A DNA stretch of 33,188 bases from positions 1-33,188 of the forward strand of contig JAIEMR010000095.1 in assembly GCA_019751935.1 (NCBI GenBank). Direction: 5' to 3'. Position numbers and translations under genes: made by a program. Source of the stretch: Alphaproteobacteria bacterium (GTDB lineage: Bacteria > Pseudomonadota > Alphaproteobacteria > Paracaedibacterales > CAIULA01). The notes beneath the pieces are model-generated. The model was not told where the DNA came from, did no database searches, and saw nothing but the letters and a program-made list of their open reading frames with translations. This document shows, one piece after another, positions 701 to 2,746 of this stretch; within the stretch, counting starts at the first letter, position 1; each line of letters begins with the position of its first letter.

Positions 701-2746
701 TTAAAAGCTTAACAGAAGTGAATCAGCTGGATCTAAATGACTTTTTACATTCTGGTAAAGAGCCCTTGCGCTAACACCTGCAGGCATATCACCCCGTAAA
801 GTTTCGTCAATAAATCTAAATATTTTATCCTGGTCGATAGCCGCTTTTGAAACTCCATTTGCCAAATAGCGAGCCTCTCTAAATTGGGCCAATGCAATAA
901 CAGTACATTTTAATTGATGTCTTAATAAACGAGCTGCTTTATCCTTATCTAACGATTCCTGGTACGGTTTAAAGAATATATGTCGGATAACCTTTACTTC
1001 CTGTTCAAAAGCTGTATCAATTTCTGATTGAAAATCCATATATCCGTGGTTAGACAAATACCTTATAACCTGTTGTAGATTGCAATCTTTTAATTTTTCT
1101 GTTTCTCTCAGATGCGTTGCAACTGCCTCACATTTCCTTGCAATACTATCAGTAGGATAATTTAATCTAAAACGCTTTCCAATTGCATTTAGCAAGCAAT
1201 TATCAAAACTAGCTGATACAACATGATAAATACCATTTACCATAACCTTTGCTTCTTCAGGGGTTGCTTTTCTGAACTTGATTCCAAAGTTACTAGCACC
1301 AGAAATTATATTTGCCCTGGTTTCTTGTAAATCTAATAATCGTTCGGAACAAACTGCGTTTAGAACTCGCCCACTTAGGGGTAGTGATGGTTCAGTATCT
1401 TTATCTGGTTCCTTTGGCATGCTGTTATAAGTTTCAAAAAAGCTTTTCCATAAACGTTTGCTCTCGGCCCTTAACCCAGGATTACTTGTATCTTGCTGCA
1501 AGAAAGCACGATGAAGTTCTGTTTGGTGTTGATTTTGCACAACCAGTAAAGCAGCATCAGCGAATTCAGAAGCAAACATTTCCGGTTCTTGGGGATTTTT
1601 AATTTCCTTAAGCGCATTAATATATGGCACACCCTCTTCTTTTATTTTTTCCCAAAGTGAATCATTAAGACATAAACTCACATAAGCTCTTATTAATAGA
1701 GAAGGAAGATTATTATCCCTATTTGCCTCATATATTATCTCCTCTGTATTACCAAAAATATCTTCCTTGCCAAAAGTCACTCCTAACTTGTTTAAATCTT
1801 CTAATATTTGATAGAAATCATCTCTTGTCAAAGCTAAGTGGGTTGCCCATGTAATCGAATAAGGCTTAATAAGATCCGTTAGTATCCTGGTAAGAGCAGG
1901 AGATAAGGGGTTGCAAATATAACGGTACAACGGTAAAACACCATATTTATCAGACGTTACAAGCAATTTACCGAGCATAATATCTGCATCAACTTTATCT
2001 GAAAAGTTATCACACTGCTCTGTTGGAATAAGATGAAGAATATTTTTGCCTAGTTGGTTACGATAAGCTGAGTAAAAAAGCACATCCAGCGGTTGGGTGT
2101 AACCAGAAAAAATCCAAAACTCAATAGGAGCGATTAAATTTAATTCCTTGGGCGTAAGTAGCGGATCCCACATGTGGAATAGAAAACTGCAAAAAGTCTC
2201 CATCGCTGCCGATTTTTCGTGCCAAGAGCAATCTTTGGGGAGCTTACATACCCTATCTGCATAGAATTGTACAAGCGAGATCTTAGGATCTGAAAATCTA
2301 TACTCTCTTAAAATTTCAGTGCAATCAGAGGAGTCAAATAAAGAACTCTCATCATATAAGTTTATGAATCTTACCGCATCATATAAGTCAGTGAAGTTTT
2401 CTAATTGAAACAGGTGTAGAGTATTAGGATATTTTTTTAAGTGCGCTAAAAACAGCCTTCTTTTTGACATATATTCAACTTGAATAGGGCGAGAACCATA
2501 ACAACCACGATATTTCACAAAGTTTTCTAATGCTGTAGAATACTTTTGTTCTAAACGTTTAGCTTCTTGTTCAATTGTTTCGATATCAATTTGAGAGATT
2601 TCAGCGGTCGCGTCAGAGGCAAACGCATCAAAAGAAAAGAGGGATAACTTAATTAATAATCCTAAAATTCCTAGTTTCAATAAAAAGGTATTATGAAAAC
2701 GCAAAACAAACATATGAAAATCCTTGCCTAAAACATGGTAAAGCAC
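701..2746 (-). CDS. Secreted orphan protein, family 1 copy a (ankyrin-like repeat signature; paralogue of 10414..11910)
   Basis: 681-aa ORF. A Sec-like signal, MFVLRFHNTFLLKLGILGLLIKLSLFSFDAFA/SD, starts at the internal Met (alternative start 2713). Colinear blocks are shared with 10414..11910: LPLSGRVLN/LPLSGRILS, SNFGIKFRKATPEEAKV/SRFGVKYRKATEDEAET, LLRHQLKCTVIAL/LMRHHLKCTVVAL, DKIFRFIDETL/DEIFDFIDGTL, KEDIFGNTEE/QEDVYGNTAE. Confidence 0.75.
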   Translation of the reverse strand: MLYHVLGKDFHMFVLRFHNTFLLKLGILGLLIKLSLFSFDAFASDATAEISQIDIETIEQEAKRLEQKYSTALENFVKYRGCYGSRPIQVEYMSKRRLFLAHLKKYPNTLHLFQLENFTDLYDAVRFINLYDESSLFDSSDCTEILREYRFSDPKISLVQFYADRVCKLPKDCSWHEKSAAMETFCSFLFHMWDPLLTPKELNLIAPIEFWIFSGYTQPLDVLFYSAYRNQLGKNILHLIPTEQCDNFSDKVDADIMLGKLLVTSDKYGVLPLYRYICNPLSPALTRILTDLIKPYSITWATHLALTRDDFYQILEDLNKLGVTFGKEDIFGNTEEIIYEANRDNNLPSLLIRAYVSLCLNDSLWEKIKEEGVPYINALKEIKNPQEPEMFASEFADAALLVVQNQHQTELHRAFLQQDTSNPGLRAESKRLWKSFFETYNSMPKEPDKDTEPSLPLSGRVLNAVCSERLLDLQETRANIISGASNFGIKFRKATPEEAKVMVNGIYHVVSASFDNCLLNAIGKRFRLNYPTDSIARKCEAVATHLRETEKLKDCNLQQVIRYLSNHGYMDFQSEIDTAFEQEVKVIRHIFFKPYQESLDKDKAARLLRHQLKCTVIALAQFREARYLANGVSKAAIDQDKIFRFIDETLRGDMPAGVSARALYQNVKSHLDPADSLLLSF

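Follow-up and report, generated by a model that had tools for sequence, protein, structure and literature searches.

The described systems closest to the proteins considered here come from intracellular bacteria. The ankyrin-repeat (ANK) effectors of Legionella and Coxiella, of Wolbachia and the Rickettsiales, and of Orientia (PMC4315096) are multi-copy, fast-evolving and accessory; they join an N-terminal or central ANK array to a different C-terminal module, and their copy number varies between close relatives. RARP-1, from the obligate intracellular alphaproteobacterium Rickettsia parkeri, carries a Sec signal, a disordered region and ankyrin repeats (bioRxiv 10.1101/2022.02.23.481736). Candidatus Bodocaedibacter vickermanii, a Paracaedibacteraceae-like protist endosymbiont with a guanine-plus-cytosine (GC) content of about 40%, has 158 coding sequences with Sec signals, 105 of which are lineage-specific orphans; such signal-peptide orphans, present in one or two genomes, have been proposed to act in host manipulation (PMC8163844). 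According to a review of the Holosporales (PMC11909080), no secreted host-interaction substrate is known from that group, for which the type VI secretion system (T6SS) is held to be the likeliest effector route; the cultured or named members of the Paracaedibacteraceae/Finniella-like group are, in the same account, all protist endosymbionts. Here, we describe a protein family that resembles these systems in the traits just listed, two genes of which lie on the reverse strand of a 33,188-nucleotide (nt) contig of an alphaproteobacterial draft genome (GenBank assembly GCA_019751935.1, contig JAIEMR010000095.1, positions 1 to 33,188), which we call the window.

The first gene (701..2713, reverse strand, the stop codon occupying 701–703) encodes P0001, of 670 residues, and the second (10414..11910, reverse strand) encodes P0002, of 498 residues. 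Each would comprise a Sec-type leader, a degenerate ankyrin-like region and a conserved C-terminal domain. On these predicted features, we tentatively read the two as exported host-interaction proteins that belong to a multigene family of an uncultured Paracaedibacteraceae/Finniella-like bacterium, a reading that we put somewhat short of an even chance.

A lineage-specific, expanding family

The relationship between P0001 and P0002, proposed in an earlier note made from the window sequence, was borne out by pairwise alignment: BLASTP matches residues 228–681 of P0001 (numbered throughout on the 681-residue reading frame discussed below) to residues 87–498 of P0002, over about 450 residues, with E = 8e-46, 29% identity and 47% positives, and a second high-scoring segment pair (HSP; E = 0.001) brings the N-terminal leaders of the two proteins together. 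The blocks quoted in that note are all present and in register, namely, NILHLIP/NYLHLIR, KEDIFGNTEE/QEDVYGNTAE, LHRAFL/VHTAFL, RLWKSFF/ELWRGFF and LPLSGR, together with FG(I/V)K(F/Y)RKAT, RH(Q/H)LKCTV, (K/E)IF.FID.TL and the C-terminal tail. Judged from this alignment, the two are true paralogues, their similarity being far above that of low-complexity matching.

In the draft genome (1.81 Mb in 206 contigs, 72% complete), to which the window belongs as contig C1, phmmer and jackhmmer searches of all open reading frames (ORFs) raised the count of family members from two to 11. Besides the two in the window, there is a tandem pair on C27, and further loci lie on C132, C38, C39, C75, C191 and C11, and on C135. 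In the C135 member (4017–5381), a leader, additional N-terminal repeats and an ANK-like core are followed by a stop codon (after EMYGNGGEIEID) exactly where the C-terminal domain would start, 83 nt before the end of the contig; this gene may have been truncated or may be a pseudogene. An exhaustive search of 1.84 billion representative proteins with the family profile gave 71 hits, about 60 of which belong to the family and six of which lie outside it. The roughly 60 relatives, from metagenomes or metagenome-assembled genomes (MAGs), are all unnamed or annotated as 'hypothetical'. Nine of 41 related genomes, all nine of 1.1–2.8 Mb, carry the family. Besides the genome itself, these are two congeners (with 11 and two matches), five further members of its taxonomic family and, with nine matches, one genome from a different family of the order. 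The protein family is, on these searches, restricted to a few related genomes of reduced size. Searching genome contigs with P0002 alone yielded no related loci, and a tighter family alignment recovered only the locus of the sister species.

Among 26 C-terminal domains placed in a maximum-likelihood tree, five copies of this genome have 1:1 orthologues in congeners, and one well-supported clade (96/98) contains six copies of this genome, both window genes included; in genome G016, the eight sampled copies are likewise monophyletic (98/100). Each lineage has, therefore, expanded the family on its own. At the P0002 locus, moreover, gain or loss can be seen at short range. P0003, the syntenic orthologue of P0002 (84% amino acid identity), is encoded on a JGI metagenome contig (L018) that is syntenic with window positions 7700–12080 and lies at a synonymous divergence (dS) of about 0.2 from it; there, P0003 stands between glmU and a further family copy (L018:3–794), situated directly upstream, that is 71% identical to the C-terminal domain of P0002 and has no counterpart at this place in the window. 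Copy number thus varies at the P0002 locus between close relatives. The lineage-specific, expanding family supposed in the earlier note is upheld: this genome and a congener have 11 copies each, and a genome of another family of the order has nine.

Because synonymous sites are saturated at 29% amino acid identity, the ratio of nonsynonymous to synonymous divergence (dN/dS) was estimated on orthologue pairs and not on the window paralogues. For P0002 and P0003, dN is 0.099, dS 0.211 and dN/dS 0.47, as against a dN/dS of 0.098 for glmU in the same genome pair; for P0001 and P0007, the latter encoded on contig L019, the values are 0.038, 0.050 and 0.76, respectively, the flanking ABC ATPase gene having a dS of 1.42, a dN/dS of 0.017 and 98% amino acid identity. 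The family genes evolve fast relative to their neighbours. L019, a Logan contig from a wastewater run, presents a mosaic of DNA identity to window positions 111–2842: the ABC gene is 77–85% identical and the family gene 95–100%, with patches of low identity at 1501–1700 and 2501–2800. Such a pattern suggests that the family gene recently recombined or passed between diverged lineages, or else that the assembly is chimeric.

As to the organism, its PepA identifies it as a Paracaedibacteraceae/Finniella-like alphaproteobacterium; this placement is made because the named sequences nearest to the window PepA are those of Candidatus Finniella inopinata (66%), Candidatus Paracaedibacter sp. (64%) and a Paracaedibacteraceae MAG (60%). 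By analogy with these relatives, it is presumably a protist endosymbiont. A PepA fragment, P0094, 84% identical to the window PepA, is filed in a eukaryote gene set (EukProt), and may be a symbiont sequence within a protist dataset and a clue to the host range of the genus. Near-identical DNA occurs in metagenomes from wastewater, freshwater, drinking water, aquaculture and activated sludge. We regard the family genes as resident because their GC content (0.345–0.404) falls inside the range of the genome (0.397 ± 0.031); a recent foreign origin was considered and left no sign in GC content.

Leader, ankyrin-like region and C-terminal domain

The reading frame of P0001 extends over 701–2746 and gives 681 residues when begun at the GTG at 2746, where the earlier note had placed the start. 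We correct this to the ATG at 2713 (M12), which is almost certainly the true start, because an AAGGA sequence lies 7 nt upstream of it (2725–2721), the leaders of the paralogues align with P0001 from Met12 onward, and P0007, 92% identical to P0001, is recorded with 670 residues; the 2714–2746 extension from the GTG is probably not translated. P0002 begins at the ATG at 11910, with an AAGGA ribosome-binding site 9 nt upstream (11924–11920). The 5' regions of the two paralogues are alike (2714–2731 and 11911–11930): TTTTA-N-CAAGGATT is followed by 4–6 nt and then by the ATG, which suggests that the duplications took in the translation-initiation region along with the leader.

That the proteins carry an N-terminal secretion signal, also claimed in the earlier note, is supported by leaders that align among the paralogues and share a common layout: a basic n-region, a hydrophobic core of 12–15 residues and an A-x-A end, followed by S/A-D. 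In P0001, the predicted Sec-type signal peptide (2618..2713, reverse strand) reads MFVLRFHNTFLLKLGILGLLIKLSLFSFDAFA, then SD, with cleavage placed after AFA on the strength of the n/h/c layout, leader conservation and hydropathy; in P0002, it (11815..11910, reverse strand) reads MHLLSLRTKFLSKFSIFVLVFVLAIFSNAAMA, again followed by SD, has a hydropathy of 3.2 and is modelled by AlphaFold2 as a lone helix at residues 3–30. The ends of the leaders as read in the sequence are SNAAMA and FDAFA, each preceding SD, and no lipobox Cys occurs in the leaders. Signal peptides were read from sequence, with a hydropathy screen that demanded a Kyte–Doolittle 12-mer maximum of at least 2.0 inside the first 25–37 residues; of 59 representatives that start with Met, 35 passed it, and the failures were mostly fragments or had a hydrophobic stretch displaced by an over-long called start. 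The leader sequence itself is conserved among the paralogues, and we take the family to be exported, by this prediction, at least to the periplasm. The leader of P0002 is followed by an acidic linker (11713..11814, reverse strand; residues 33–66), which is rich in D, E and S and predicted to be disordered, the predicted local distance difference test (pLDDT) score being below 50 at residues 27–64.

Next comes a region of degenerate ankyrin-like modules, which number from one to about eight per member. In P0001, the core (1649..2122, reverse strand; residues 209–366), defined by the N-terminal profile, the alignment and hhalign, contains YRNQLGKNILHLI and, further on, GVTFGKEDIFGNTEE; it is preceded by an extra N-terminal module (2123..2485, reverse strand; about residues 88–208), a degenerate copy of the YRN..G.N.LHL type recognized in the jackhmmer domain table and by the second BLASTP HSP. 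This YRN..G.N..HL module, duplicated in P0001, is present in about seven to eight tandem copies in the 1927-residue paralogue on C11. The corresponding region of P0002 (11194..11712, reverse strand; residues 67–239) has the ANK-start-like motifs YRDNAGRNYLHLI, DTVLMALAM and QEDVYGNTAESI. Across 17 members, three core motifs are kept: YRN..G.N..HLI, G.TPLM.LAL and L..L...GV..DQ.D..GNTA.SI. The last two are about 33–40 residues apart (an ANK repeat having ~33), and the first is set off by an insertion of about 45–75 residues. Near 11401, at the TPLM-like motif, the window allele has an in-frame duplication of 24 nt, that is, eight codons (DTVLMAEN-DTVLMA), which is missing from contigs of two metagenome runs and from P0004 of the sister species.

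The derivation of this region from ankyrin repeats is supported by the six non-family proteins retrieved in the search of representative proteins (E from 2e-14 to 3e-4), all of which match the N-terminal profile only, in 5–13 stretches each: five have strong Pfam Ank matches (E from 1e-88 to 1e-186), and the sixth, P0065, has a weak Ank_4 match only (E = 2e-5). Indeed, hhalign of the 17-sequence N-terminal alignment with two of these ANK outsiders gives probabilities of 87% and 85% (E about 5e-6) and aligns the three motifs of the family with the starts of successive ANK repeats. The AlphaFold2 model of P0002, which is all-alpha (pLDDT 81; predicted template modelling score, pTM, 0.76), has short helix pairs with loops of about 14 residues at residues 167–220. 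Foldseek of this full model against BFVD returned a list dominated by ANK proteins, all at E ≥ 0.07, and the full family profile matched only designed ankyrin-repeat proteins (DARPins) among PDB sequences, at E ≥ 0.17. These sequence comparisons lead us to regard the region as ANK-derived, though highly degenerate, with two fairly canonical repeats and vestigial ones that carry long insertions. The ankyrin-like repeats of the earlier note, therefore, stand in part: the family profile retrieves true ANK proteins and hhalign supports the match, whereas standard Pfam models and structural comparison gave no significant match (see below).

The C-terminal domain occupies residues 367–681 of P0001 (704..1648, reverse strand; E = 1.5e-92 with the C-terminal profile), where the tail ends in HLDPADSLLLSF, and residues 240–498 of P0002 (10417..11193, reverse strand), where it comprises 12 helices in roughly 260 residues. 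P0001 and some other members contain an insertion of ~55 residues (P0001 residues ~510–570) that the shorter P0002 lacks. In P0002, the motifs of the domain are QxQTxxHxAFLQ, LWxxFF..D, LPLxxR, GxSxFGxxFxRxATxxEA, LxxHQxxCxVxAL, FxxIDxxL and NSKxxF. Members close with an acidic tail, the last residue of which is F, Y or W in most of them; in P0002, the tail ends in SADSEALDF. AlphaFold2, run on a 27-sequence alignment, models the domain with a pLDDT of 91.4 and a pTM of 0.89.

No relative of the domain came to light in the searches made, in keeping with the earlier note. Pfam searches of 27 C-terminal domains (E ≤ 0.1) gave no consistent match, the 11 families hit being represented by one member each (best E 0.0096), and neither did NCBIfam match P0001 or P0002; the C-terminal profile had a best E of 1.4 against PDB sequences; Pfam found no known domain in any of 11 large distant members; and Foldseek of the C-terminal model against PDB had a best E of 0.45 with template modelling (TM) scores of at most 0.29, the top entries being ARM/HEAT-like proteins and designed helical repeats. 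An F-box/PRANC, SOCS-box or U-box ending was rejected, as Pfam has no such match in P0001, in P0002 or in the 27 domains at E ≤ 0.1. The same holds for NEL, a bacterial GAP with its Arg finger in LPLSGR, a WxxxE GEF, a colicin-like pore and a papain-like triad, none of which has a Pfam or fold match in its favour or fits the motif geometry.

Within the domain, conservation is concentrated at particular positions. Among 27 diverse members, F287 and D464 (P0002 numbering) are invariant, W306, G362 and H426 are kept in 26, L335 and L423 in 25 and C430 in 24; Y246, Q277, D314, R333, R366, E372 and S478 are also conserved. The earlier note had singled out LPLSGR and HxLKCTV as invariant blocks: the invariance of LPLSGR holds among close paralogues only, R333 and P329 each being found in 21 of the 27. 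Even the most distant members, which belong to other genera and are about 20% identical elsewhere, retain the motifs L..HQ..C.V.AL, F.(E)ID..L and (T)GG.FG.NF.R.A..EA. H426, C430, D464, F287, W306 and G362 are, on this alignment, a real family-wide signature and, because many of the conserved positions are polar, we suggest that these form a putative catalytic or ligand/metal-binding site and not a mere scaffold.

The neighbours of the two genes are housekeeping genes, encoding an ABC ATPase, GST, ThyX, GlmU, DnaQ, PepA, cytochrome bd, TamB, DapD and DapE. Scans for promoters and terminators gave counts not above those in shuffled sequence. A single expression trace was found, a 231-nt contig of a freshwater metatranscriptome that covers 11682–11918, at the 5' end of the P0002 gene, with one mismatch and a 6-nt deletion; it is a weak hint that P0002 is transcribed in nature.

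Proposed delivery and mode of action

If the family members are host-interaction proteins, the leader would be cleaved at the AxA/SD junction after Sec export, and the mature proteins would then be released from the cell by a second step over the outer membrane, for which a secretin, a GspF/PilC-like protein and several TolC-like proteins are encoded candidates; the genome also encodes a T6SS (three TssC hits) and one VirB4 homologue. Once released, the proteins would have components of the host as their substrates or partners. Target binding would fall to the variable ankyrin-like array, and the conserved C-terminal domain would provide a common 'business end', with a probable catalytic or metal/ligand site built from the family-wide His-x3-Cys helix, the F-x-(E)-I-D helix and the Gly-rich FG.NF.R.AT loop. 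When both readings that have the proteins secreted to the host are counted, effector status is plausible, with a chance that we set at about even or a little better.

Several observations weigh against this account. With respect to location, a Sec signal in itself predicts the periplasm and not passage over the outer membrane, the secretin stands alone without an adjoining type II secretion system (T2SS) operon, and RARP-1, a Sec-signal ankyrin protein, was found to be periplasmic in R. parkeri (bioRxiv 10.1101/2022.02.23.481736). With respect to setting, the host association of the MAG is drawn from its relatives, the near-identical reads being from environmental metagenomes, and the support for transcription is one 231-nt contig. 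The repeats are also open to objection: Pfam Ank models have no match at E ≤ 1 in P0001, P0002 or 17 N-terminal regions; the ANK targets given to hhalign were ones that the family profile had retrieved in the first place; an atypical ANK protein encoded in this genome aligns to the family with a probability of 0.1%; and the best PDB match of the full model with Foldseek, the ANK/TPR protein FEM1C, is non-significant (E = 0.098, TM 0.17). A six-frame search of the genome with Ank_2 (E ≤ 1), moreover, matched contigs C17 and C95 only and none of the 11 family loci. Finally, what speaks for the putative His/Cys/Asp site is its conservation; its His and Cys share a single helix (i, i+4), unlike the geometry of a classical protease triad, and the Cys is replaced in three of the 27 members.

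The alternative that survives best, although we consider it unlikely, is that export ends in the periplasm or envelope, where the proteins would serve the bacterium itself, in maintenance, growth or invasion competence, as with RARP-1, and would not be host-directed effectors. It draws on that precedent, on leaders of the classical Sec type with no recognizable second-step secretion signal, on the dispersal of the genes among housekeeping genes with native GC content, and on a secretin that has no T2SS genes adjacent to it. Set against it are 11 divergent paralogues with dN/dS values of 0.5–0.8, independent expansions and variation in copy number, all in the style of a host interface; furthermore, the family is missing from 32 of the 41 related genomes and is, therefore, dispensable and accessory. 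The orphan secretin itself lies on contig C12, in the region of 2639–3793 and 4173–5906, with a 384-residue ORF bearing a signal peptide and a 603-residue coiled-coil ORF alongside; no T2SS or pilus gene is near it on C12, and the sole GspF/PilC-like gene is on C8.

If the proteins do reach a host, the role of the C-terminal domain may be conceived in two ways. It could be an undescribed enzymatic effector domain, with a site made up of HQxxC, F-x-(E)-I-D and FG.NF.R.AT, that is carried into the protist cytoplasm by a Sec-dependent two-step delivery, the variable ANK-derived arrays directing it to different host targets; in this full form, the proposal is doubtful. Alternatively, the domain may be non-enzymatic, a module for docking, secretion recognition or oligomerization, with the N-terminal repeats carrying the specific function. 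In many effector families, the conserved module serves delivery or acts as an adaptor and the variable part confers specificity, and such an arrangement would have precedent-like parallels in the BID domain of Bartonella Beps and in the PRANC/F-box end of poxviral ANK proteins. It would also suit a domain that is all-helical and, to Foldseek, solenoid-like (the ARM/HEAT and designed-repeat matches being non-significant), an acidic tail with an aromatic end that resembles a short linear docking motif, and N-terminal modules that number from one to about eight. Nevertheless, H426, C430, D464, Q277, R366 and the Gly-rich loop are kept in the most distant members, beyond the usual need of a scaffold, and the F-box, PRANC, U-box and BID models are all without a match, so that a purely docking role, too, seems rather improbable.

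The T6SS deserves separate mention, since it is the only secretion apparatus conserved across the Holosporales and the effector route favoured in the review cited above, and since the member at C132:1–768 is separated from tssE by 94 bp and is oriented convergently to a cluster of tssB, tssC, an hcp-like gene, an orphan and tssE, in an arrangement kept in the sister species (L017/L031). In the two species, this cluster (C132:862–5467 and L017:10073–16262) comprises tssB, tssC, a 186-residue orphan of Hcp size, a 349-residue orphan with a signal peptide, and tssE, and neither orphan has a Pfam match. T6SS linkage was rejected as a general feature of the family, being confined to one orthologous pair (C132, L031) in convergent orientation. 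The T6SS takes up its substrates in the cytoplasm, and these do not normally bear Sec signal peptides. That the family members are cargo or accessory proteins of this system is, thus, very improbable: the C132 gene is convergent and, therefore, not co-transcribed with the T6SS genes, no T6SS gene lies within about 10 kb of some 20 other family ORFs, situated on the 11 other loci of relatives inspected (five genomes), and all complete members have Sec leaders, with no PAAR, VgrG or Hcp domain or fusion in the members examined.

Comparison with known systems

Holosporales/Paracaedibacteraceae-type bacteria are widespread as protist endosymbionts, and the family provides a defined candidate for the study of their host interactions, with domain boundaries, a confident model of the unassigned domain and a shortlist of residues. 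Should the enzymatic, two-step effector proposal be true, it would be the first defined effector family of Holosporales-type endosymbionts. Additionally, the ankyrin repeats have here diverged below the reach of standard models, and ANK counts in endosymbiont genomes are, therefore, underestimates. The general theme, that of accessory, fast-evolving repeat-protein families of intracellular bacteria, is a familiar one, and the present case will be useful to specialists without being startling.

Set beside the ANK effectors of Legionella, Coxiella, Wolbachia, the Rickettsiales and Orientia, the family differs in three respects. The repeats of those proteins are canonical and recognized by Pfam, whereas those of the family go without a match even at E = 1; they are delivered by type IV or type I secretion systems through C-terminal signals and without Sec leaders, whereas the family has Sec leaders; and no relative of its C-terminal domain was found among them. 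The poxviral and bacterial ANK proteins with an F-box/PRANC ending share with the family an order of ANK-type repeats followed by a helical C-terminal module, and it is they that dominate the non-significant BFVD list; the C-terminal domain described here, of about 260 residues and 12 helices, is, however, five times larger, and the fold hits remain at E ≥ 0.07 and TM ≤ 0.2.

RARP-1, likened to the family by its described architecture, is the best precedent for this class of protein, as it is for the periplasmic caveat. It is, however, a single conserved gene product with canonical ANK repeats at its C-terminus and without a helical end domain of 260 residues, whereas the family is expanding. 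In the account of Ca. Bodocaedibacter vickermanii (PMC8163844), the orphans are listed collectively, with one ANK protein among them, and no paralogous family of this architecture or with this C-terminal domain is described. Overall, an orphan Sec-signal secretome, of about 100 proteins in Ca. Bodocaedibacter (PMC8163844), was already known in outline; to that outline, the present analysis adds a family that is now defined, with its architecture and a candidate functional site.

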